The translations under genes and the position numbers were made by a program. The notes beneath the pieces are model-generated. The model was given only the letters and a program-made list of their open reading frames with translations, did no database searches and was not told where the DNA came from. Below are positions 9,823-58,329 of a DNA stretch of 64,000 nt, one piece after another. Source of the DNA: an uncultured Chitinophagaceae bacterium (GTDB lineage: Bacteria > Bacteroidota > Bacteroidia > Chitinophagales > Chitinophagaceae). The stretch lies in contig CAVPYW010000008.1 of NCBI GenBank assembly GCA_963710055.1, positions 72,794 to 136,793 of the forward strand. Direction: 5' to 3'. Positions within the stretch are counted from its first letter, which is position 1. Each line of letters opens with the position of its first letter.

Positions 9823-11079
9823 CTAAATTACTCCTGCCAGTTCCAAACTTCTTTTTCTCAGTTGACGTGTAGCTATCTCTTCAACAACAGGGTTGGGCAA
9901 AAGAATAAGTGAAGTTCCATTTTCTTTCCACCAGGTATTTTCTTTCAATGCTGAAAAGGAAATAACACCTGCAAGATATTTCCTGTTTTCCTGCGCATGC
10001 CATTCTTCTATCCATTCAAACTGTTCTTTGGGAATATGATCGATGTTCTCAAAACTTATATAAGTTCGAAGGAAATAATCATTGCTTAGCTCGTGCGGCT
10101 GATGCTGGTATAGTTTTTTGTATTCATATTTATAATCATAACGAAGCGCTGCAATATCACTTAACACGGCAGAAGCTGTCGGAAAGCTGCCGGCGCCTTT
10201 GCCATAAAAGAATTGTTTGTCAGCAAAACTGCTTTCAATGACTACGCCATTATATTCATTTTTTACAAAAGCCAAATGATCGTCTTGTTTTACAAATTGC
10301 GGCAAAACAAATGCGGCTACTTTGCCATTCTTTAATTTCTGCGCCTGTGCCACCAGTTTTATTTCCTGTTTTTTGGAACCGGCGACAACGGCATCGGTTG
10401 CATGAATGTTTTGTATACCATTGAACAAAATATTTTCTGCCGGTTCAATGATGCCATAAGCATGCGTGAGAAGGAAGGTCCATTTGTTCACCGCATCATA
10501 TCCTTCCACATCAAGTACAGGATCGCTTTCTGCAAAACCGGCCTGTTGTGCCAATAGCAATGCCTGTTTGAAGTCAAGGCCATCTTCAAACATTTTTGTA
10601 AGAATAAAATTTGTTGAACCGTTTACAATGGCTTTGATCGAATGAAGAAGGTCATTGTCATAATATTCTTCCAGGTTGCGGATAACAGGAATAGAAGCAC
10701 AGGCGGCCGATTCATACAAAAAAGATCTTCCTGTTTCCAATTGTAACTTTAATATTTCCGGTAAATGTGCGGCGATCATTTTTTTACTGGCACTTACAAC
10801 ATGCTTTCCATTTTTCAAAGCGGTACTTACAATTTCAAATGCGGCATCGGCATCATCGATCACTTCTACGATGACATTGATAGCACGGTCATTTAGAAGA
10901 TCATTCCTGTCTGTAGTAAATAGAGAAGCGGGGGCATTTCTTTTCTTACTATAGTTTTTGATACAAACTTTTTTAATATCGGCTTTCAATGATGGTGTTT
11001 GCTGCAACACTTTGTAAAGTCCTTCACCTACGACACCGAACCCGAAAAGACCTATTATTAGTTGGTTATTTGTTGGCAT
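9823..11079 (-). CDS. hom: Homoserine dehydrogenase (monofunctional)
   Basis: GFGVVG, YESAACASIP, VNGSTNFILTKM, AESDPVLDVEGYDA, GKGAGSFPTASAV. Confidence 0.92.
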   Translation of the reverse strand: MPTNNQLIIGLFGFGVVGEGLYKVLQQTPSLKADIKKVCIKNYSKKRNAPASLFTTDRNDLLNDRAINVIVEVIDDADAAFEIVSTALKNGKHVVSASKKMIAAHLPEILKLQLETGRSFLYESAACASIPVIRNLEEYYDNDLLHSIKAIVNGSTNFILTKMFEDGLDFKQALLLAQQAGFAESDPVLDVEGYDAVNKWTFLLTHAYGIIEPAENILFNGIQNIHATDAVVAGSKKQEIKLVAQAQKLKNGKVAAFVLPQFVKQDDHLAFVKNEYNGVVIESSFADKQFFYGKGAGSFPTASAVLSDIAALRYDYKYEYKKLYQHQPHELSNDYFLRTYISFENIDHIPKEQFEWIEEWHAQENRKYLAGVISFSALKENTWWKENGTSLILLPNPVVEEIATRQLRKRSLELAGVI

Positions 11080-12248
11080 GATCGGGTTTCGTTTTTAGTT
11101 TCATTTAATTTATTGAATGCATTGGCAAGATCATCGATAAGATCCGGGGCTTCTTCAAGCCCGACGGAAAGGCGGATGAGACTATCAGCTACGCCGGCGG
11201 CCCTTCTTTTTTCCTGCGGGATAGATCTATGCGTCATTTGAGCGGGATGACATAAGAGGCTTTTTACTCCGCCAAGACTTTCAGCCAACTTGAAATATTT
11301 TGTAGAAGTGACAAATGTTGTGGCTGCTTCTTCTGTATCATTTTTCAATGTGAAAGATACAATGCCGCCAAAACCTTGTGATTGCCTGGCTGCAATATCA
11401 TGGTTGAAATGATCTTTCAAACCGGGATAAAAAACTTTACCGACAGCAGGATGTGTTTCTAAAAATTCAGCAATGATCTGTGCATTGATGCAATGTTGTT
11501 TTATTCTCAACGGTAATGTTTCGATGCCACGAATGACCAGCCAGCTATCAAACGGAGAAAGGATAGCACCGCTGGCATTTTGTATGAACTTTATTTTATC
11601 GCCCCACTCTTTTTCTTTGGTCACAACAAGACCGGCGATAAGATCGCTATGCCCGCCCAAATATTTGGTAGCAGAATGAATTACAATATCAGCTCCCAGC
11701 GAAAGAGGTTGTTGTAAGGCGGGTGAAGCAAAAGTGTTATCCACGCAAAGTAAACACCGGTTGGCCCTGGCTATTCTAGCGATCGCTTCAATGTCTGAAA
11801 TTTTCAGTGTAGGATTGGTCGGTGTTTCGATCCAGATCAATTTTGTTTGCGGTGTAACAGCATTGAAAACATTTTCTGCATTGGTGGTATCAACATAATT
11901 GACCTTGATACCGAATTTTTGATAGATATGCGTGAAGAGCCGAAAGGCACCGCCGTAAATATCATCGACAGCAAGGATCTCATCACCGGTTTGTAAAAGT
12001 TTTAAGACCGCATCTATCGCAGCAAGTCCGCTGCCGAAAGCGATCCCCGTTGTGCCATTCTCTAATTTGGCAATAATGTTTTCCAGTGTTGCTCTTGTTG
12101 GATTGCCGGTGCGGGCATAATCAAAACCTTTGTTTACACCCGGTGCTTCCTGCACAAAAGTGGATGTTTGATAAATAGGAACAGCAAGTGCTCCTGTCAA
12201 TTCATCTACCGGGATACTGTGGATCAGTTGTGTTGCATTGTTACTCAT
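11058..12248 (-). CDS. metB: Cystathionine gamma-synthase / trans-sulfuration PLP enzyme
   Basis: YARTGNPTR, ETPTNP, VDNTF, HSATKYLGGHSD (PLP lysine), AESLGGVKSL; downstream of a SAM riboswitch. Confidence 0.85.
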   Translation of the reverse strand: MSNNATQLIHSIPVDELTGALAVPIYQTSTFVQEAPGVNKGFDYARTGNPTRATLENIIAKLENGTTGIAFGSGLAAIDAVLKLLQTGDEILAVDDIYGGAFRLFTHIYQKFGIKVNYVDTTNAENVFNAVTPQTKLIWIETPTNPTLKISDIEAIARIARANRCLLCVDNTFASPALQQPLSLGADIVIHSATKYLGGHSDLIAGLVVTKEKEWGDKIKFIQNASGAILSPFDSWLVIRGIETLPLRIKQHCINAQIIAEFLETHPAVGKVFYPGLKDHFNHDIAARQSQGFGGIVSFTLKNDTEEAATTFVTSTKYFKLAESLGGVKSLLCHPAQMTHRSIPQEKRRAAGVADSLIRLSVGLEEAPDLIDDLANAFNKLNETKNETRSCQQITN

Positions 12249-12356
12249 TTTTCTTACCCTCCATCTCCCTAAGGGAGTGTTTAGTGATCTTAAAATTGTT
12301 TGTGACTACTTGCAAGAAGGGAAGAGAATAGAATATTACCAGGAGAGCTTTACAAT

Positions 12357-12445: not shown

Positions 12446-12483
12446 AATATGTTGTTGAAGATATTTTGAAGCTGTGGATCTGA

Positions 12484-12597
12484 CTTATCTGTCCCAACAT
12501 TTATTGTCAGGATGGAATTGGCACCTTTTCCCGCACGTGCGGGACAGGTTGTCAAGGCTTCACCGGGCCATTACCCTCAGCCTTTCTTGATAAGTAG
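12484..12597 (-). ncRNA. SAM-I (S-box) riboswitch
   Basis: Minus strand CTTATCAAGAAAGGCTGAGGGTAATGGCCCGGTGAAGCCTTGACAACC...AAGGTGCCAATTCC...GATAAG matches the SAM-I consensus; upstream of methionine genes. Confidence 0.95.
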
Positions 12598-13978: not shown

Positions 13979-14193
13979 AAATTAAAATTTTGTTGTTTAA
14001 TAGGTACTCGGCCACTACTTCAAAATATTGTGCCAAACATTTTTTTTGTGGAAAACTTGAAGAATACCGGGCAGTAGAACAGAGAACGTTAAATGTCGAA
14101 TGAAAACGTTTCTTATTGATACTGCGTCACTTCATTTGTTCTGAATTCCTTGTTCATCTGTTCAACATTCATCAGTATCTTCGTAGACTTCAT

Positions 14194-17151
14194 ATGGCAA
14201 AAGCAACTAATAACGGGACAGAAGAGATAGCAGAGAATAAAGAAATGATAGAAGTATTCGGAGCCCGGGTTCATAACCTGAAGAATATTGATATTTCCAT
14301 TCCCAAAAATAAACTCGTCGTCATTACCGGTATCAGCGGAAGCGGTAAGTCTTCGCTTGCATTCGATACAATTTATTCCGAAGGACAACGCAGGTATATG
14401 GAAACCTTCGGTGCTTATGCCCGTCAATTTATCGGTGATATGGAACGGCCGGATGTAGATAAGATCACCGGTCTTTCTCCTGTTATTTCCATTGAACAAA
14501 AAACAACGAATAAAAATCCACGGTCAACGGTTGGTACCGTAACAGAGATCTATGATTTTCTCCGTTTACTTTTTGCAAGGATCGGCGAAGCCTATTCTTA
14601 TAACACGAAAAAGCGAATGGTGAAATGGAGCGAAGACGAAATAGTAGAAAATATTTTTACTAAATACAAAGGAAAAAATATCGCATTGCTGGCGCCATTG
14701 GTGCGTGGAAGAAAAGGTCACTACCGCGAATTATTTGAAGATGTACGGAAAAAAGGTTTTTTGAAAGTAAGAATTGATGGAGAGATCAAAGACCTCGTTC
14801 CTAAAATGCAGGTGGATCGTTATGTGATACACGATATAGAACTTGTGGTGGATCGTTTACAGGTAACAACTGATCTGAAAGCCCGGCTAAGCCAGAGTGT
14901 ACAGCAAACGATGAAGCTTGGAAAAGATCTGATGTTTGTATTATTGGACCTCACCCCAAACCCCTCTCCAAAGGAGAGGGGCCTCGCAGACTCCGGAAAA
15001 ACAAAAAGTCTTTCCAGGTTGAAAGACTCTAAAGCCTCTCCTTCGGGGGGATTTGGGGAGGTCATTATGTATTCCAAATTATTGATGTGTGAAGACACAG
15101 GTATCAGTTATGAAGAGCCATCGCCCAATGCATTTTCATTTAATTCGCCTTATGGCGCCTGTCCCGTTTGCAAAGGATTAGGAACAAAACATCATATTAA
15201 TATGGAAGCGGTGATCGCTGATCCTTCACTCAGTATCAGCGAAGGCGGGATCGCACCGCTCGGGGAAGAAAGAGATGCATGGGTCTATCGCCAGGCACAG
15301 GAGGCAGCGAAGAAAAATAAAATATCATTGAAAACCCCTGTTAGTAAACTTTCAAAAAAGCATTTGAATATAATGCTCTATGGAAATGAAGAGGGGCAAC
15401 AGGAAGATCTTGATTTTGAGAATATGAAATTCGATCCGTATGGGCCATTTGAAGGTATTGTCAACATGATCCAGCGATGGTTTGCGAGTCCATACAGCGA
15501 AACGATAAGGGAATGGACCGAAGATTATATGACCGTCAAACCCTGCGATGCCTGCAATGGCGCAAGGTTGAAAAAAGAAAGTTTGTGGTTCAAAGTGAAT
15601 GGAAGAAATATTTCTGACCTGAGCAATATGAACCTCGATAATTTGGCGGCATGGTTTGACGGGATCGAATTAATGCTCGACAACAAACAAAAGACGATCG
15701 CAAAAGATGTATTGAAAGAAATAAGAGAAAGGCTGCAATTTTTATTAGATGTTGGGTTGACCTATCTCACTTTATTCAGGCCATCGAAATCATTGAGTGG
15801 CGGTGAATCGCAACGCATAAGACTGGCCACACAGATCGGCTCGCAGTTACAGGGCATCACTTATATATTGGATGAACCCTCTATCGGGTTGCACCAGCGG
15901 GATAATCATCGCCTGATCGATGCATTGAAGAATTTAAGAGATATCGGTAATAGTGTGTTGGTAGTGGAACATGATAAAGACATCATGTTAGCGGCGGATC
16001 ATTTAATTGATATTGGACCGAAAGCAGGTTTTCATGGAGGAAAAATTGTAGCGCAGGGCAGTCCTGCCGATATCCTGAAACTGGATACACTTACATCCGG
16101 TTATTTGAATGGTCATCATCGTATTGCCGTTCCCGCGGAAAGAAGAAAAGGCAATGGAAAATGGTTGGAATTAAAAGGAGCCAAAGGAAATAACCTTCAG
16201 AATGTTGATATAAAACTTCCGCTGGGAAAATTTATTTGTGTGACAGGAGTAAGCGGCAGCGGTAAATCAACGCTGATCAATGAAACATTATACCCGATCC
16301 TTTCCAAACATGCTTATGGTTCTAAAATGACACCGCTTGAGTATAAAACGGTGAAAGGACTGGAGCATATCGATAAAGTGGTCGAGGTCGATCAATCGCC
16401 TATTGGAAGAACGCCGCGAAGCAACCCCGCTACCTATTGCGGTTTTTTTACAGAGATAAGAACTTTGTTCGCTTCTATACCGGAAGCAAAGATCAGGGGA
16501 TATACTGCCGGTCGTTTTTCTTTCAATGTAAAAAGCGGCCGCTGTGAAGTGTGCGAAGGCGGAGGAATGAGAGTGATCGAAATGAATTTTTTGCCCGATG
16601 TATATGTGCATTGCGAGAAATGCAATGGCAAAAGATATAACAGGGAAACACTGGAGATCCGTTATAAAGGCAAATCCATTTCCGATGTATTGCAAATGAC
16701 GGTGGAAGAAGCAGTGGAATTCTTTCAGAATGTTCCTTATCTCTATCGTAAGATAAAAGTGCTGGAAGAAGTTGGTTTGGGGTATATCACATTGGGACAA
16801 TCGGCCGTAACATTAAGCGGGGGAGAAGCGCAGCGGGTAAAATTGTCAACGGAGCTTTCTAAAAAAGATACGGGTAAAACATTTTATATTTTGGATGAAC
16901 CAACCACCGGCTTGCATTTTGAGGATATCCAGCATTTGCTCGATGTATTGAATAAGTTAGTGGACAGGGGCAATACGGTTCTTGTGATCGAACATAATAT
17001 GGATGTGATAAAAGTTGCGGATCATATCATCGATCTTGGCCCGGAAGGAGGCGATGGCGGCGGAAGGATCTTATATGAAGGAACACCGGAAGAATTGATA
17101 AAGAATAAAGAAAGTTATACGGCCCAATTTTTAAAAGCGGAGATAGCATAA
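14194..17151 (+). CDS. uvrA: Excinuclease ABC subunit A
   Basis: GARVHNLKN, GISGSGKSSLAFDT, zinc fingers, two LSGGE signatures, LDEPTTGLHF; likely start ATG 14194. Confidence 0.98.
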   Translation: MAKATNNGTEEIAENKEMIEVFGARVHNLKNIDISIPKNKLVVITGISGSGKSSLAFDTIYSEGQRRYMETFGAYARQFIGDMERPDVDKITGLSPVISIEQKTTNKNPRSTVGTVTEIYDFLRLLFARIGEAYSYNTKKRMVKWSEDEIVENIFTKYKGKNIALLAPLVRGRKGHYRELFEDVRKKGFLKVRIDGEIKDLVPKMQVDRYVIHDIELVVDRLQVTTDLKARLSQSVQQTMKLGKDLMFVLLDLTPNPSPKERGLADSGKTKSLSRLKDSKASPSGGFGEVIMYSKLLMCEDTGISYEEPSPNAFSFNSPYGACPVCKGLGTKHHINMEAVIADPSLSISEGGIAPLGEERDAWVYRQAQEAAKKNKISLKTPVSKLSKKHLNIMLYGNEEGQQEDLDFENMKFDPYGPFEGIVNMIQRWFASPYSETIREWTEDYMTVKPCDACNGARLKKESLWFKVNGRNISDLSNMNLDNLAAWFDGIELMLDNKQKTIAKDVLKEIRERLQFLLDVGLTYLTLFRPSKSLSGGESQRIRLATQIGSQLQGITYILDEPSIGLHQRDNHRLIDALKNLRDIGNSVLVVEHDKDIMLAADHLIDIGPKAGFHGGKIVAQGSPADILKLDTLTSGYLNGHHRIAVPAERRKGNGKWLELKGAKGNNLQNVDIKLPLGKFICVTGVSGSGKSTLINETLYPILSKHAYGSKMTPLEYKTVKGLEHIDKVVEVDQSPIGRTPRSNPATYCGFFTEIRTLFASIPEAKIRGYTAGRFSFNVKSGRCEVCEGGGMRVIEMNFLPDVYVHCEKCNGKRYNRETLEIRYKGKSISDVLQMTVEEAVEFFQNVPYLYRKIKVLEEVGLGYITLGQSAVTLSGGEAQRVKLSTELSKKDTGKTFYILDEPTTGLHFEDIQHLLDVLNKLVDRGNTVLVIEHNMDVIKVADHIIDLGPEGGDGGGRILYEGTPEELIKNKESYTAQFLKAEIA
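14947..15063. repeat. 117-bp palindromic MITE/REP-like element inserted in-frame in uvrA
   Basis: Terminal inverted repeats GACCTCACCCCAAACCCCTCTCC...GGGGGGATTTGGGGAGGTC; internal hairpin AGTCTTTC-CAGGTT-GAAAGACT; encodes DLTPNPSPKERG...PSGGFGEV. Confidence 0.8.
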
Positions 17152-24966: not shown

Positions 24967-26256
24967 CTAATAATTGTATTTATCCTTCCACAAACTCTTC
25001 AAAAATTTTCTTAACTCCTCTTCTCTTGCATTCTTTCCGGGATCGAAGAATTTCATACCGGCAATTTCTTTGGGCAAATATTCCTGCGGAGAAAAGTTAT
25101 TCTCATAACTGTGCGAGTATTCATAATTCTTTCCGTAACCCATATTCTTCATCAGTTTTGTCGGCGCATTGCGGATATGCAATGGCACGGGAAGATCGCC
25201 ATGTTGTTTAACGGCATTCATAGCCGCCCCGATGGCTGCGGTGGCAGCATTGCTTTTTGCACTTGAAGCCAGATAGATGACACATTGCGATAATATCAGC
25301 GCCGATTCAGGATAACCGATCTTATTCACTGCATCGAAAGTAGCATTGGCCATTACCAGTGCAGTTGGATTAGCATTACCGATATCTTCGCTCGCCAGTA
25401 TCAGCAATCTTCTTGCAATGAATTTTACATCTTCACCGCCTTCGATCATTCTTGCAAGCCAATACACCGCTGCATTGGGATCGCTGCCACGTATCGATTT
25501 GATAAAAGCAGAAATGATATCATAATGTTGTTCGCCGCTTTTATCATACAGGGCAATTCTTTGCTGGGCTACATGCATTATATATTCATCGGTGATAACT
25601 ATTTTATCGGAGTCTTCGGAACCCCCTCCTGCGGAGGGGTTTGGGGAGACTGCAATTTCCAGCAGGTTCAGTAATTTCCGGGCATCGCCACCGGAAATAT
25701 TGATCATCGCTGCTGTTTCTTTTAATTCGATCTTTTTCTTTTTTAAGATCCCGTCTTTTTGAATGGCAGTCTTTAAAAGACCGGTAAGATCTTTTTCCTC
25801 CAATGGTTTTAATACATATACCTGGCAACGGCTAAGCAAGGCGCTGTTCACTTCGAAAGAAGGGTTCTCTGTTGTGGCACCGATTAATACAATGATCCCT
25901 TTTTCAACAGCACCCAATAATGCATCCTGCTGGCCTTTATTAAAACGATGGATCTCATCAATGAATAATATAGCGCCGGGTTTTGATCTTGCTTCTTCGA
26001 TCACTTCTCTTACATCTTTTACACCGGAACTGATAGCGCTGAGTTGAAAGAACGGAACTTTTAATGTGTGTGCAATGATATTGGCAATCGTTGTTTTGCC
26101 GGTACCCGGCGGCCCCCAGAATATCATCGAAGGCACTTTGCCTTTTTCAATGGCAGTTCGTAAAATACCTCCTTTGCCAACAAGATGTTGTTGTCCCAGC
26201 AATTCATCCAATGAATTGGGACGAATGCGTTCCGCCAGCGGCACGTTAGTGTTCAT
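24967..26256 (-). CDS. rarA: Replication-associated recombination protein A
   Basis: PLAERIRP, WGPPGTGKTT, FIDEIHRFNK, ATTENPSF, ISAFIKSIRGSDP, ASEDIGNANP. Confidence 0.96.
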   Translation of the reverse strand: MNTNVPLAERIRPNSLDELLGQQHLVGKGGILRTAIEKGKVPSMIFWGPPGTGKTTIANIIAHTLKVPFFQLSAISSGVKDVREVIEEARSKPGAILFIDEIHRFNKGQQDALLGAVEKGIIVLIGATTENPSFEVNSALLSRCQVYVLKPLEEKDLTGLLKTAIQKDGILKKKKIELKETAAMINISGGDARKLLNLLEIAVSPNPSAGGGSEDSDKIVITDEYIMHVAQQRIALYDKSGEQHYDIISAFIKSIRGSDPNAAVYWLARMIEGGEDVKFIARRLLILASEDIGNANPTALVMANATFDAVNKIGYPESALILSQCVIYLASSAKSNAATAAIGAAMNAVKQHGDLPVPLHIRNAPTKLMKNMGYGKNYEYSHSYENNFSPQEYLPKEIAGMKFFDPGKNAREEELRKFLKSLWKDKYNY

Positions 26257-52707: not shown

Positions 52708-54345
52708 ATGAAGCATAAGGTTTTAAAAGTTCATCCGAAGGACAATGTGATAGTAGCATTGACCAACCTGGAAAAGGGAGAAACAATTTCTTTTGAAGGG
52801 ATGGACTATGTAATGAAAGAAAATATTCCTGCCAAGCATAAATTTTTTATGCGGGATATGAGTGCCGGCGATGACATCATCATGTATGGTGTGCTGGTAG
52901 GAAAAGCGCAGCAGGCTATTGAGAATGGAAGCCGGATGTCAACCGAAAATACAAAACATGCGGCGCAACCTTACGACTGGCGCAATGCAAAATTTGAATG
53001 GCATGCGCCGGATGTTTCCAAATTCAAAGGAAGAACATTCAATGGTTATCATAGAAGCGATGGAAGAGTGGGAACGGCTAATTACTGGTTATTCATTCCA
53101 ACCGTTTTTTGTGAGAACAGGAACCTGGATGTGATCCGCGAAGCAATGCATAATGAATTGGGCTATGCAGTAACGGATAAATACAAGCAGTACACACATC
53201 AGTTGGTAAACGCTTATCAAAAAGGAGAACAACTCGATAGTATCGATCTTTCGCCATCCTCCAATGGGCAGGATCGTATGTTTAAAAATGTGGATGGGAT
53301 AAAATTTTTAAATCACCAGGGTGGTTGCGGCGGTATAAGACAGGATGCTGCAATATTGAGTAAGTTATTGGCAGCTTATGCCGATCATCCGAATGTGGGT
53401 GGCGTTACGGTGTTGAGTTTGGGTTGCCAGAATTTGCAAGTGCAGGATCTTAAGAATGATCTGGAAGCACACAATCCCCGTTTTGATAAGCCGCTTTTTA
53501 TTTTCGAACAGCAGCAATCGCAAAGCGAAGAGCAATTAATTGCCGATGCGATCAAAAAAACATTTGAAGGACTTATTGAAATAAATAAACTGGAAAGACA
53601 ACCGGCAACGCTTGATAAATTATGTATCGGTGTAAAATGCGGCGGCAGCGATGGTTTCAGTGGTATCTCTGCCAATCCATCTGTTGGTTATTGTTCTGAC
53701 CTGGTGGTTGCATTGGGCGGAAAAGTATTACTGGCAGAATTTCCTGAATTGTGTGGCGTTGAACAGGAATTGGTTGACCGTTCGGTGAATGAAGCGACGG
53801 CAAAAAAATTCATGCAGCTGATGAAGAGTTATGATGAGATCGTTACGAGGGCCGGTTCAAGTTTTTCGATGAATCCTTCACCGGGAAATATCAAAGATGG
53901 TTTGATAACGGATGCAATGAAAAGTGCAGGCGCTGCGAAGAAAGGCGGCACTTCACCCGTTGTTGATGTATTGGATTATACTGAGCCCGCTGTGAAACCC
54001 GGATTGAATTTGGTTTGTACGCCGGGCAATGATGTAGAAGCGACAACGGGTAAAGCGGCGAGCGGCGCTACATTGATATTATTTACTACCGGTTTGGGAA
54101 CGCCGACCGGTAATCCTGTTTGCCCGACGATAAAAGTTTCGACAAACAGTAATTTGACAAAACGGATGAATGATATAATAGATATTGATTGCGGCCCGGT
54201 GATCGAAGGAGAAAAGACCATTCAGCAAATGGGAGAAGAAATTTTAGAGTATTGTATCAAAGCGGCGAGCGGCGAAGTGACACCGAAAGCGGTGATGTTG
54301 AACCAGGATGATTTTATTCCGTGGAAGAGAGGCGTGAGTTTGTGA
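52708..54345 (+). CDS. uxaA: Altronate dehydratase
   Basis: SAF domain, GTANYWL, HQGGCG, KCGGSDGFSGISANP, PSPGNIKDGL, KGG, FTTGLGTP. Confidence 0.95.
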   Translation: MKHKVLKVHPKDNVIVALTNLEKGETISFEGMDYVMKENIPAKHKFFMRDMSAGDDIIMYGVLVGKAQQAIENGSRMSTENTKHAAQPYDWRNAKFEWHAPDVSKFKGRTFNGYHRSDGRVGTANYWLFIPTVFCENRNLDVIREAMHNELGYAVTDKYKQYTHQLVNAYQKGEQLDSIDLSPSSNGQDRMFKNVDGIKFLNHQGGCGGIRQDAAILSKLLAAYADHPNVGGVTVLSLGCQNLQVQDLKNDLEAHNPRFDKPLFIFEQQQSQSEEQLIADAIKKTFEGLIEINKLERQPATLDKLCIGVKCGGSDGFSGISANPSVGYCSDLVVALGGKVLLAEFPELCGVEQELVDRSVNEATAKKFMQLMKSYDEIVTRAGSSFSMNPSPGNIKDGLITDAMKSAGAAKKGGTSPVVDVLDYTEPAVKPGLNLVCTPGNDVEATTGKAASGATLILFTTGLGTPTGNPVCPTIKVSTNSNLTKRMNDIIDIDCGPVIEGEKTIQQMGEEILEYCIKAASGEVTPKAVMLNQDDFIPWKRGVSL

Positions 54346-54420
54346 CCCCTGTCCCCTGAAGGGGAACTTAGATCGTAAAGTCTTTCAGGGAATTAAAAGA
54401 ATTATAGCAATAAATGCATT

Positions 54421-56925: not shown

Positions 56926-57054
56926 GAATGGAACGCTGATGACACGGAGGAGACGGATGAAAACGGATTTTTTTTAAAACAAGCAATTTTAATTACAATA
57001 AAGTAAACGACTCAAAGTCCCCTTTAGGGGATTTAGGGGCAAATCAAAACAACA

Positions 57055-58080
57055 ATGTCAAAGAAGATAGTAACAATGGGAGAGATCATGCTGCGATTAT
57101 CCACTCCCGATTTCAAACGATTTGTACAGGCAGATACATTCGATGTAACCTACGGCGGCGGCGAAGCCAATGTAGCAGCAGCCTTATGTAATTATGGATT
57201 GAACGGAACTTTTGTAACAAAAGTGCCGAACAATCCTATTGGCCAGTCGGCGATCAATCATCTTCGCCGCTATGGTGTGGACACACAATATATAGTAAGA
57301 GGTGGCGATCGTTTAGGGATTTATTTCCTGGAAACAGGCGCTTCCATGAGAGCTTCACAGGTTGTTTATGATCGTGCCGGTGCTTCCATCGCCGATGTAG
57401 ATATCAAAGAATTTGATCTTGATAAAATACTGGATGGCGCAAGCTGGTTCCATACAACCGGTATCACACCCGCATTGAGCGATAAAGCGGCTGCATTGAC
57501 AGAAGCTGCTTTGAAAGCGGCAAAAGCAAAAGGCATCACCACCAGTATCGATCTTAACTACCGGAAAAAATTATGGAGTAAAGAAAAAGCAAGAGAAGTG
57601 ATGACAAAGCTTTGCCAGTATGTCGATGTTTGTATCGGCAATGAAGAAGATGCGGATACAACACTCGGCTTTAAAGCAAAGGACACCGACGTTACCAAAG
57701 GCGAATTGAATCTTGATGGTTTTAAAGATGTATTCAAACAAATGAAAGAAAAGTTCGGATTCAAATTCATCGCTTCTTCATTGAGGGAAAGTCATAGCGC
57801 CAGCGACAATGGCTGGAGTGCATTGGTATATGATGGCAATGATTTTTATCATACCAAACAATATAATGTACGCATAGTAGACAGGGTGGGAAGCGGCGAT
57901 TCTTTTGCCAGCGGTTTGATCTATGGATTGGTTACAGGCATGCCGATGAATGAAGCTGCAGAATTTGGCGTGGCTGCATCAGCATTGAAGCATACTATTC
58001 CCGGTGATCTTAATCATGCAACACTGGCTGAGGTAAAAGAGCTGGTGAAAGGCGATGGAAGCGGAAGGGTGCAGCGATAG
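57055..58080 (+). CDS. kdgK: 2-dehydro-3-deoxygluconokinase (PfkB)
   Basis: GEIMLRL, GGGEANVA, YDRAGAS, DLNYRKKLW, DRVGSGDSF, KHTIPGD. Confidence 0.93.
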   Translation: MSKKIVTMGEIMLRLSTPDFKRFVQADTFDVTYGGGEANVAAALCNYGLNGTFVTKVPNNPIGQSAINHLRRYGVDTQYIVRGGDRLGIYFLETGASMRASQVVYDRAGASIADVDIKEFDLDKILDGASWFHTTGITPALSDKAAALTEAALKAAKAKGITTSIDLNYRKKLWSKEKAREVMTKLCQYVDVCIGNEEDADTTLGFKAKDTDVTKGELNLDGFKDVFKQMKEKFGFKFIASSLRESHSASDNGWSALVYDGNDFYHTKQYNVRIVDRVGSGDSFASGLIYGLVTGMPMNEAAEFGVAASALKHTIPGDLNHATLAEVKELVKGDGSGRVQR

Positions 58081-58329
58081 AAAGCCCTCTGTCTCCCAAA
58101 GGGAAGACTTAGGTCAAATTGTCTTTTTATATTCAATAAGTTCTTTATAGAAATATTTTTTTTTATGTTGCCGGCGATATTGCTACTATCATCGCCTGTT
58201 GCGTCGCACACTTGTACTGTAGGAATTCTACTGAGCAATTAAGCGTTTTCCATCCCCTCCTGGGAGGGGCGACAGACTGTATGAATAAGGAAATTTTCAA
58301 AGGGGTGGGTTAAAAACTTCAAACTGGTT

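Follow-up and report, generated by a model that had tools for sequence, protein, structure and literature searches.

An inverted doublet of triplex-motif repeats in frame within uvrA of a soil Chitinophagaceae bacterium, and DUF559 as a candidate for the missing mobilising enzyme

The intrastrand triplex motifs of bacteria follow a class pattern that consists of a C-block, N3-6, a G-block, N3 and a second G-block (Holder 2015, NAR 43:10126, PMC4666352). These motifs are present in thousands of copies, inverted pairs occur, and no transposase or other mobilising gene has been found for them; TM_ECO forms an intrastrand triplex in vitro, and the motif of E. coli K-12 has intergenic copies only (PMC4666352). 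The so-called potential intrastrand triplex (PIT) elements also belong here (Hoyne and Maher 2000, as cited in PMC4666352). Among the REPs, which are another type of short palindromic repeat, some are in frame within genes and encode 7-50 extra residues; REPs have been noted in uvrA of Opitutus terrae and Thioalkalivibrio, and DNA-repair genes are over-represented among their hosts (PMC3733652). The triplex-motif class is thus already known, and what has been lacking since the 1990s is its origin and the enzyme that mobilises it. Two further groups are the Rickettsia palindromic elements (RPE; Ogata et al. 2000, also referred to in PMC3733652), which are reportedly about 100-150 bp long, and the small dispersed repeats (SDR) of Nostoc (Elhai et al. 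2008), which are reportedly simple hairpins of 21-27 nt.

The window, by which is meant the whole 64-kb stretch of DNA that was analysed, contains a uvrA gene (Table 1) whose product possesses the Pfam domains UvrA_inter, UvrA_DNA-bind and ABC_tran, matches the solved structures 9gxk and 2r6f at E = 0, is 63-89% identical to 63 orthologs and retains every invariant motif. A first-pass annotation had placed a 117-bp palindromic element in frame inside this gene, and the element is borne out: 14947-15063 comprises 39 codons (DLTPNPSPKERGLADSGKTKSLSRLKDSKASPSGGFGEV), is free of stop codons and in frame within the ORF 14191-17151, and its inverted repeats could be located. The outer inverted repeat (14947-64 and 15046-63) has arms of 18 nt that are 72% complementary, and whole units are inverted relative to each other, so that the element has the terminal inverted repeats of a MITE. 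Inside it are a perfect hairpin, CCCCTCTCC-AAA-GGAGAGGGG, at 14961-81 and a further hairpin at the centre (15007-28). The RNA of the insert folds with -51.5 kcal/mol (z = -3.1; 0/200 shuffles equally stable), and its G+C content is 55%, compared with 41-42% for the window and the remainder of uvrA.

The doublet is made of two units and a spacer. In the left unit the block GGAGAGGGG is followed by a conserved 3' extension, and in metagenome contigs this unit has sharp edges at 14946-49 and 14980-84; independent metagenome contigs cover and confirm the left junction of the doublet only. The hairpin of the right unit is partly decayed. The window spacer is significantly like the spacers of doublets elsewhere (z = 6.7 for uvrA of L277, 4.1 for rarA of L082 and 3.9 for L262). 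A second gene with a unit is rarA, the product of which has the Pfam domains MgsA_C, AAA_assoc_2 and AAA and matches the E. coli RarA structure 3pvs at E = 1e-110. The 30-bp relative that had been noted here at 25621-25650 (VSPNPSAGGG) is real, and the homologous unit is longer, at 25611-25653, where it encodes AVSPNPSAGGGSED. All six of its reading frames are open, its residues are missing from most RarA orthologs, and it is located in the loop following the AAA+ lid helix. As had been stated, both coding copies keep the frame. Against R1, a covariance model of the repeat family, the left unit scores 50.7 bits (E = 6e-11), the right unit 40.1 bits (E = 2.5e-8) and the rarA unit 43.9 bits (E = 3e-9), matches that hold by construction because all three units were R1 seed sequences.

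Table 1. Genes, repeat units and motifs located in the window
Feature	Coordinates	Strand	Description
Three-block motif, other subfamily	12257..12277	+	CCCTC-cat-CTCCC-taa-GGGAG; 9 nt upstream of ATG of minus-strand ORF 11058-12248
uvrA CDS	14191..17151	+	986 aa from ATG at 14191; carries the doublet
Palindromic doublet, 117 bp	14947..15063	+	two inverted triplex-motif units with a spacer between; codons 253-291
Left unit	14947..14993	+	C-rich strand on +; CCTCACCCC (14949-57), AAA, CCCCTCTCC (14961-69), AAA, GGAGAGGGG (14973-81)
Spacer core	14994..15022	+	own 8-bp hairpin AGTCTTTC / GAAAGACT, 15007-15028, extending into the right unit
Right unit	15023..15065	-	G-rich strand on +; CCTCTCC (15035-41), TTC, GGGGGGA (15045-51), TTT, GGGGAGG (15055-61)
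rarA (mgsA) CDS	24967..26256	-	429 aa; carries the single unit
Single rarA unit	25611..25653	-	on +: CCCCTCC (25623-29), TGC, GGAGGGG (25633-39), TTT, GGGGAGA (25643-49)
Three-block motif	54346..54365	+	CCCCT-g-TCCCC-tgaa-GGGGA; begins 1 nt past stop of ORF 52708-54345
Three-block motif	57018..57039	-	on +: TCCCC-ttta-GGGGA-ttt-AGGGG; ends 15 nt before ATG of ORF 57055-58080
Three-block motif, one bulge	58084..58113	+	CCCTCT-g-TCTCCC-aaa-GGGAAGA; begins 4 nt past stop of ORF 57055-58080
Plain C/G hairpin, non-member	58254..58269		CCCCTCC-tg-GGAGGGG, no third block adjoining

On the grounds of architecture, the 117-bp insert and the rarA unit are both assigned to the BoxC / PIT / TM_ECO class of intrastrand triplex motifs. 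A unit of about 35-45 nt consists of a hairpin and a third block that mirrors one of its arms; the blocks are a pyrimidine run, a second run mirroring it and the complementary purine run. Because the third block mirrors a hairpin arm, the G-rich single strand could fold into a purine-motif triple helix, and the units may adopt this fold in vivo. The blocks are 9+9+9 nt with AAA/TTT loops in the left unit and 7+7+7 nt in the rarA unit. When the sequence is read against the published rule (G.G-C, A.A-T, T.A-T; at most one mismatch; PMC4666352), the triads of the purine motif are canonical at 9/9 positions in the left unit (G-rich strand), at 6/7 in the rarA unit and at 5/7 in the decayed right unit. 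In a set of 124 copies drawn from many phyla, the sequence flanking the search pattern is a mirror of the hairpin arm, and mirror length follows stem length; there are 58 C/C and 30 T/T pairs versus 12 discordant ones at position 7, the third-strand base at position 5 is A or T in 113/124, and an inverted partner is present no more than 160 nt away in about 25/124. The TM_ECO pattern itself, CCCTCNCCC N3-6 GGGNGAGGG N3 GGGNGAGGG, is not matched by the units, whose blocks are CCCCTCTCC / GGAGAGGGG / GGGGTGAGG; the window units and TM_ECO have the class in common and differ in subfamily. The earlier assignment to a MITE/REP family stands as far as a dispersed palindromic repeat is concerned, but the family is of the BoxC / PIT / triplex-motif class and not a GTAG- or CGTC-tagged REP, the tag that defines REPs (PMC3733652) being absent from the unit and its consensus.

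The window holds additional motifs between genes. A strict three-block search recovered 4 motifs in the window, against none in any of 30 Markov simulations, and missed the motif at 58084..58113 because of its bulge. When R1 was applied to the five intergenic candidates that had been proposed as relatives, it recognised the generic hairpin core only (E = 0.2-2.7). Four of the five do share the three-block architecture, but they represent other, shorter subfamilies, and the fifth (58254-69) is a plain hairpin. The tally for the 64-kb window is three units of the uvrA/rarA subfamily and four of other subfamilies.

In UvrA a surface beta-hairpin located directly after the UvrB-interaction domain carries the doublet at its tip. 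Solved UvrA structures have 4 residues at the insert point, and the window UvrA has about 38. AlphaFold2 assigns pLDDT <50 to residues 256-287, flanked by strands 247-252 and 291-295, and the insert is predicted to be a disordered loop. The doublet would be translated as a Pro/Ser/Gly/Lys-rich disordered loop of 39 residues that UvrA accepts, probably with neutral effect. Units are almost without stop codons (5-6 of 6 frames open), because their blocks are all-pyrimidine or all-purine, and a clean insertion of 33 nt is a multiple of three, so that a copy landing in a gene would preserve the frame. Tolerance of the family in protein loops, as had been suggested, is supported by the conservation of the DNA rather than the peptide and by the tight 4-residue turn in most orthologs.

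Aligned with their relatives, UvrA and RarA show the inserts as additions relative to solved structures and to the majority of orthologs. Of 81 UvrA orthologs, 13 have the site occupied and 63 have a tight turn there; extra residues are present at the RarA site in 11 to 13 of 74 orthologs, depending on the cut-off, and in the orthologs compared each protein has one internal insertion site only. Filled sites are dispersed over the gene trees, where intact, decayed and remnant copies are intermixed with empty sites, and changes of state number at least 7-9 for UvrA and 12 for RarA (at least 6 of them forced). Both loops have been filled more than once, in independent events. Occupants vary in orientation, reading frame, length and sequence; they are 11-55 aa long, and all keep the frame. 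In the closest relatives (L001, L035) UvrA is without an insert, and where the site is empty the ancestral NDxN turn is retained at the length seen in outgroups. Units are found at the same beta-hairpin in a Sphingomonadaceae UvrA that is only 40% identical, such that this hairpin is occupied in both Bacteroidota and Alphaproteobacteria. Five of the six significant model hits in 970 kb fall in the uvrA and rarA loops; L002, one of these five, and the seed sequence L162 are one and the same stretch of DNA. The insertion is apparently shared with L071, the gene of which is just 76% identical in nucleotides, yet the left unit in the window is near-consensus, which plain neutral decay does not predict for an old-looking insertion. 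Equally long, non-palindromic linkers in close orthologs had been named as an observation that would count against an insertion; L003, L049 and L066 do have such linkers, but amid clearly palindromic ones in L002, L034, L026, L071 and L047, and on our reading the three long linkers are decayed copies.

Sequence conservation in the units lies in the DNA rather than in the encoded residues. In another species (L082), rarA contains a 125-bp doublet whose left arm matches that of the uvrA insert almost exactly and whose reading frame is another one (TSPQTPLQKRGA versus LTPNPSPKERG), and in L094 the unit is in reverse orientation. The sister genes L088/L119, which are 90% identical in nucleotides, differ by a clean 33 nt; this one filled/empty pair (AC|33 nt|A) is without a target-site duplication. 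In four soil metagenomes the left unit is present with at least 8 different flanks. The earlier view that the hosts are two DNA-repair ATPases is correct for uvrA and rarA but too narrow, as in-frame units are also encountered in purH (PurH), metG (MetRS), htpG (HtpG), aroA (AroA) and aroC (chorismate synthase).

Units of this type bracket DUF559 genes. DUF559, a very widespread domain, has no activity known to us and is not known as a transposase. Among 144 loci ascertained by the repeat pattern, 7/7 DUF559 hits are flanked by units on both sides. In the reverse direction, 80 loci ascertained by the DUF559 protein alone have a motif density of 2.36/kb within 300 nt versus 0.13/kb beyond 500 nt, an 18-fold enrichment that includes the related genus Ferruginibacter, and two-sided bracketing is present in 26 of the 80. 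The Ferruginibacter unit-DUF559-unit cassettes L313/L314 have the ends GACCTCACCCC...CCCCTCTCC / ...GGGGTGAGGTC, and their terminal units share about 30 of 35 nt with the left unit in the window. At L187, L278, L261 and L331, DUF559 is in frame inside host genes. DUF559 is absent from the window and from 160/160 uvrA/rarA loci, and no robust sub-terminal similarity was found between the window spacer and the DUF559 cassettes. The bracketing makes DUF559, as a Vsr-like nuclease, a candidate mobiliser of the units, and solo units and doublets would then be stripped-down derivatives of unit-DUF559-unit cassettes. A more far-reaching and tentative possibility, which we hold to be rather less than even, is that triplex-motif repeats at large are terminal modules or derivatives of a pan-bacterial DUF559 (Vsr-like PD-(D/E)xK) cassette that repeatedly enters the same surface loops in conserved genes, the UvrA beta-hairpin foremost.

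The reading favoured here, with a probability of roughly 0.8, is that the insert is a non-autonomous inverted doublet of triplex motifs around a partly conserved spacer, read through as a tolerated UvrA loop. A native, lineage-specific, low-complexity linker that is palindromic by chance and involves no mobile DNA could account for the long linkers without clear palindromes of L003, L049, L066 and L019. It is very improbable, and is contradicted by the arm that recurs in another frame in rarA of L082 and by the many different metagenome flanks; near-identity of the DNA to units in other genes, species and frames, the G+C content of 55% vs 42% and the ancestral turn of outgroup length in empty relatives also speak against it. 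Still harder to credit is removal of the insert before the protein is finished, by way of an intron, an intein or translational bypassing. The strong RNA structure formed by the insert would suit such a process, but nothing needs removal because the insert is in frame and stop-free, and occupants of 11-55 aa all keep the frame; an intein would have to be far longer than these 39 low-complexity residues, and Rfam gave no match to an intron or other family at the insert site.

Two further explanations concern what brings the units to these genes or keeps them there. Co-option supposes that the loop tunes UvrA, or that the hairpin or triplex tunes uvrA expression or local mutation and recombination, with selection explaining the hits in repair genes. 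Unrelated REP families in uvrA, uvrB, uvrD, polA, recBCD and dnaE2 have been argued to be unlikely to be fortuitous (Di Nocera et al. 2013, PMC3733652), triplex motifs have been linked to local genomic instability (Holder 2015, PMC4666352), and the left unit is near-consensus in spite of the apparent age of the insertion. We regard co-option as quite unlikely, as the peptide is unconserved, with frame, orientation, length and sequence all varying among occupants, the closest relatives are without the insert, the loop is predicted to be disordered, and the same units are present in metabolic enzymes. Homing, in which DUF559 nicks empty alleles and the filled allele is copied in by recombination after cross-species transfer, is somewhat less improbable but still doubtful; doublets and solo units would be what remains after decay of the nuclease gene, as in the homing cycle. 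It would fit the single site per protein, the sporadic occupancy scattered over the trees with intact to empty states intermixed, the filled hairpin in a Sphingomonadaceae UvrA of 40% identity, the unit-bracketed and sometimes in-frame DUF559 genes and the concentration of five of six significant units within two loops. Against it, a DUF559 gene is present in none of the 160 uvrA/rarA loci, the domain is without known activity, and the frame and orientation of occupants vary, which exact homing would not give. The codons around empty sites are moreover not conserved at the DNA level, so there is no evident homing recognition sequence.

What is new is that units of this class, probably translated, are located within essential genes of a Chitinophagaceae bacterium from soil, and that one UvrA loop and one RarA loop are recurrent landing sites across species, the former across phyla. 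The two-way statistical association with DUF559 puts forward a specific candidate for the missing enzyme, one that experiments can test; among the papers searched, none was found that links BoxC/PIT/TM motifs to DUF559. Should the candidate prove correct, an orphan repeat known for 30 years and a very widespread domain without assigned function would each account for the other, and the preference of palindromic repeats for DNA-repair genes would become approachable by experiment. If the cassette reading is true, the intermediate that is recognised would be the triplex folded by a single strand, and the recurrence in NER genes could reflect an interplay between triplex DNA and excision repair. 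If the candidate fails, what is left is ordinary selfish DNA tolerated in a protein loop, comparable to RPE.

Compared with the described systems, RPE are likewise selfish palindromic DNA that sits in frame in housekeeping genes, where surface loops accommodate the translated peptide; they are unrelated to the units here in sequence and taxon and are not three-block motifs. To our knowledge, recurrent use of one loop across families or phyla has not been described for RPE. The Nostoc SDR resemble the units in being tiny hairpin repeats, with no enzyme known for them, that reportedly enter not only genes and spacers but also other repeats. Intragenic REPs and REP dimers (PMC3733652) and REPINs (Bertels and Rainey 2011, PMC3116915) are short palindromes that occur as singles and inverted dimers, as here, and 14947-15063 is such an inverted doublet with a short spacer that folds into a long hairpin. 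The third mirror block of the window units is missing from REPs, however, and the units have no known association with RAYT, the bracketed gene being DUF559. The closest likeness is to BoxC/PIT/TM_ECO, with which the units share three consecutive G/C-rich blocks of 7-10 nt (a C-rich block, its G-rich complement and a second G-rich block in mirror arrangement to the first), separated by loops of 3-6 and 3 nt, high conservation across many phyla including cyanobacteria, frequent inverted pairs and no transposase nearby. The kinship in sequence is weak: L305, a copy found downstream of gcvP in E. coli, agrees in block order and shows 81.6% identity with the left unit (BLAST E = 7), but it reaches only 9.9 bits against R1, the model of the window subfamily, and TM_ECO has CCCTCNCCC blocks with TTA or CCG loops where the window units have CCCCTCTCC with AAA loops. 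The host belongs to the Bacteroidota, a group that PMC4666352 does not discuss, and whereas the E. coli K-12 motif is always intergenic, the units described here are in frame within genes and recur at fixed loops.

The 117-nt stretch within uvrA is an insertion; it keeps the reading frame and has terminal inverted repeats, as the first-pass annotation had described, the outer repeat being 18 nt long, and it contains hairpins. Its G+C content is 55% versus 42% for the uvrA gene, its predicted RNA fold (-51.5 kcal/mol, z = -3.1) is more stable than any of 200 shuffled sequences, and it is open in three reading frames. When the encoded protein is compared by phmmer with solved UvrA structures, the alignment is broken at query 250/289 and chain 256/261, the structures having 4 residues where this UvrA has about 38, and most UvrA orthologs form a tight turn here with the consensus L-L-N-D-D-N-K-V-V (alignment, n = 80). 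In an AlphaFold2 model built with 64 sequences, whose mean pLDDT is 83, the insert lies between strands 247-252 and 291-295 and pLDDT falls below 50 for residues 256-287; the UvrB-interaction domain, as delimited by Pfam, ends at residue 251. All invariant UvrA residues are retained, and the gene thus looks functional.

Coordinates of the elements discussed, in window positions
Feature	Position	Strand	Remarks
uvrA ORF	14191-17151	+	starts with ATG
Palindromic insert in uvrA	14947-15063	+	117 nt, 39 codons, reads DLTPNPSPKERGLADSGKTKSLSRLKDSKASPSGGFGEV
Perfect internal hairpin of insert	14961-14981	+	CCCCTCTCC-AAA-GGAGAGGGG
Centre hairpin of insert	15007-15028		
Right unit of insert	15023-15065	-	partly decayed copy, 40 bits; seed member of covariance model
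rarA ORF	24967-26256	-	host of single unit
rarA unit	25611-25653		
ORF downstream of riboswitch	11058-12248	-	
SAM-I riboswitch	12482-12596	-	RF00162, 76 bits
Short three-block motif	12257-12277		between riboswitch and start codon, 9 nt from ATG
Three-block motif	54346-54365		other subfamily; starts 1 nt past stop codon
Three-block motif	57018-57039		other subfamily; ends 15 nt before start codon
Three-block motif	58084-58113		other subfamily; starts 4 nt past stop codon
Hairpin	58254-58269		

A short relative had also been reported in rarA, where 25621-25650 encodes VSPNPSAGGG. This peptide does lie in the minus-strand ORF, and the unit is longer than was claimed, since the similarity to the left arm of the uvrA insert continues into ...GAAGACTCCG. 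The unit is open in all six frames, and its residues follow the lid helix ...ARKLLNLLE, in a loop that is 5 residues shorter in E. coli RarA (3pvs) and 8-10 residues shorter in most orthologs.

The repeated unit consists of three blocks. The left unit of the uvrA insert can be written CCTCACCCC-AAA-CCCCTCTCC-AAA-GGAGAGGGG, in which a pyrimidine block is followed by its mirror image and then by the purine complement, and on the opposite strand it reads CCCCTCTCC-TTT-GGAGAGGGG-TTT-GGGGTGAGG. If the last block were folded back antiparallel on the middle block, nine canonical purine-motif triads (G.G-C, A.A-T, T.A-T) would be formed. This three-block architecture has been published under the names BoxC, PIT elements and TM_ECO, the last with the pattern CCCTCNCCC-N3-6-GGGNGAGGG-N3-GGGNGAGGG (Holder et al. 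2015, PMC4666352). The same study counted 3610 copies across 262 proteobacterial genomes and an abundance in cyanobacteria, demonstrated triplex formation in vitro, noted that E. coli K-12 has five pairs in inverted orientation, found no transposase, and described the motif as "always located intergenically" (PMC4666352). An E. coli copy downstream of gcvP (L305) reads CCCTCACCC-TAA-CCCTCTCTCC-AAA-GGGGCGAGGGG and has an inverted partner upstream, and it scores only 9.9 bits against the covariance model of the CCCCAAACCCC subfamily, which places the window's units in the class and not in the E. coli subfamily. A sub-threshold Rfam match of the left unit to whalefall-1 (16.8 bits) is absent on eight other units and was dismissed as chance, and literal unit sequences searched as strings in the literature gave chance matches only.

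Independent copies were collected with the pattern CCCCAAACCCCTC-N3-11-GAGGGG in one genome per species, which yielded at least 120 loci. The matches listed span many phyla and include Chitinophagaceae, Bacteroidales, Sphingomonas, Rhizobium, cyanobacteria and Anaerolineae, and in these listed copies conservation extends beyond the pattern to a C at -3 and to CTT following the last G. Upstream, the flank is a mirror image of the hairpin arm: among the 124 listed copies, position 7 is C/C in 58 and T/T in 30, versus 12 that are discordant, and the mirror symmetry ends where the stem ends. At position 5, 113 of these 124 have A or T, which the purine-motif rule permits. The pattern is also matched exactly by 24 IMG/VR viral contigs (L281-L304), and in a Bacteroidetes MAG one unit (L274:4589-4705), located at the edge of a five-tRNA cluster, stops 4 nt short of a tRNA gene.

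About 25 of the 124 listed copies have an inverted partner no more than 160 nt away. The two units in uvrA might be taken for chance neighbours, yet doublet spacers are significantly similar across different genes and species, likeness to the window's uvrA spacer reaching z = 6.7 for the uvrA of L277, 4.1 for the rarA of L082 and 3.9 for L262; the doublet of about 117-125 bp, spacer included, is therefore a conserved composite. A search of sequencing runs located the window's gene in four soil DNA metagenomes and in no RNA run. In these metagenomes only the left unit recurs, in at least 8 distinct flanking contexts and with its ends sharply defined at 14946-14949 and 14980-14984. No further occurrence of the spacer was observed in the four metagenomes, whose contigs break inside the element and cover only its left junction.

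Insertions recur at the same two places. In UvrA the beta-hairpin is the only internal site at which a minority of orthologs (13/81) carry extra residues, and RarA likewise has a single such site, with 11 orthologs having at least 5 extra residues. On a UvrA tree computed without the insert columns, long inserts are confined to the Chitinophagaceae clade and need 9 changes, at least 7 of them forced by well-supported branches; the nearest relatives of the window's UvrA are one occupied (L071) and two empty with the ancestral turn (L001 and L035). The insertion in the window appears to be the ortholog of the one in L071, whose gene is 76% nucleotide-identical, yet the window's left unit is near-consensus. 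RarA inserts, scored as loops of more than 21 residues (13/74), need 12 changes, at least 6 of them forced, and their scatter equals that of shuffled labels. Across 970 kb surrounding uvrA and rarA genes, five of the 6 significant model matches fall in the two loops, one of the five (L002) being the same stretch as a model seed sequence. Farther afield, a Sphingomonadaceae MAG encodes a 40% identical UvrA (L259:1042-2427) with an insert of roughly 55 residues in the same beta-hairpin, which holds two units, KPSPSMGEGLGGG ... TPPQTPPHQEEGL. The RarA proteins of L113 and L160 share 77-78% identity with that of the window and come from MAGs titled Citrobacter freundii and Bosea thiooxidans; both are probably mis-binned Chitinophagaceae contigs.

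These units are most probably mobile DNA that is tolerated in frame. In the rarA doublet of L082 the left arm is almost identical to the window's, yet it is read TSPQTPLQKRGA, one base out of register relative to the window's LTPNPSPKERG, and in L094 the unit is in the opposite orientation. A single 33-nt unit, cleanly delimited as AC|GGCCTCCCCAAACCCCTCCAAAGGAGGGGCTTT|A and open in all six frames, distinguishes two sister loci (L088 and L119; 99% support, 90% nucleotide identity); a target-site duplication was sought at this filled and empty pair and none was found, nor was a target motif seen at empty sites. Units also lie in frame in PurH (the same site in two species), MetRS, HtpG, EPSP synthase, chorismate synthase, an IcmF-like mutase and DUF6298, and at the C-terminal ends of ArgG and of an ATP-grasp protein. 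With metabolic enzymes among the hosts, the units are not a peculiarity of repair ATPases. The earlier picture of a MITE/REP family tolerated in loops holds in outline, with a more precise family name; the restriction to two DNA-repair ATPases falls away. Why the two loops are favoured may be explained by tolerance alone, by homing through recombination, or by a target at the DNA level.

A candidate mobiliser is DUF559, a Vsr-like nuclease domain (PF04480, confirmed by Pfam). When the DUF559 domain embedded in L187 was searched by tblastn against 144 loci ascertained by the unit pattern alone, 7 matches were obtained, all 7 with units on both sides and 5 no more than 130 nt from the unit by which the locus was ascertained; the domain is absent, by tblastn, from the window and from all 160 uvrA and rarA loci. 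In the reverse test, three-block motifs were counted in 80 loci that had been selected solely for the DUF559 protein (a three-sequence alignment), and their density was 2.36/kb within 300 nt of the DUF559 gene versus 0.13/kb beyond 500 nt, an 18-fold difference. At least one motif occurs in 50 of the 80 loci and 26 are bracketed on both sides, most commonly by an inverted pair with the C-strand upstream and the G-strand downstream. Taken together, the two ascertainments establish the association of units with DUF559, from which we infer that the nuclease may mobilise them. Among the papers searched that mention DUF559, titles and abstract openings make no apparent link to these repeats.

In Ferruginibacter, which belongs to the window's family, the cassettes L313 and L314 end in GACCTCACCCCtttCCCCTCTCC... 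and ...GGAGAGGGGctGGGGGTGAGGTC, the window's own terminal units, and one Ferruginibacter MAG carries, besides a cassette, solo units that include one lying in frame within purH. A test of whether the 117-bp doublet arose by deletion from such a cassette gave no clear support: the terminal units match, the sub-terminal parts do not align reliably, and the window's spacer has no reliable match in the DUF559 cassette interiors. The unit-DUF559-unit cassettes of two Ferruginibacter MAGs (L313:712-1353 and L314:705-1352) lie directly upstream of trpA, with a frame open into that gene (ORFs of 443 and 424 aa, measured from stop to stop). Elsewhere, unit-flanked DUF559 domains lie in frame within large host ORFs (L187:2014-5970, minus strand; L278; L261/L328; L331), the hosts being an IcmF-like B12 mutase of a Bacteroidota MAG and, in Chloroflexota, in Acaryochloris and in an unclassified MAG, long ORFs, so that the nuclease may be made as part of a host protein.

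Run with filters off, R1, the covariance model of the window's subfamily, finds only three units in the 64 kb, two in uvrA and one in rarA, all of them model seed sequences. All three lie within the 11-kb uvrA-rarA stretch; the two genes are no more than about 10 kb apart in the window and also share contigs in several relatives (L014/L088, L071/L118, L066/L095, L019/L131, L009/L147), with loop occupancy uncorrelated between genomes. As to the five intergenic relatives listed by the first-pass annotation, four are three-block motifs with shorter blocks and first loops of 1-3 nt that abut gene ends, and the fifth, at 58254, is a plain hairpin by both model and motif search. The motif at 12257 lies between a SAM-I riboswitch and the start codon of a minus-strand ORF, and the other three could serve as terminators or as structures at mRNA ends.

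REPs and REP dimers belonging to other families have been described inside genes, uvrA of Opitutus terrae and of Thioalkalivibrio among them (Di Nocera et al. 2013, PMC3733652). Elements of this kind are already known, both as triplex-motif repeats and as intragenic palindromic repeats; what is new is the triplex-motif class in frame, its recurrence in the uvrA and rarA loops of Chitinophagaceae, and the tested link to DUF559.
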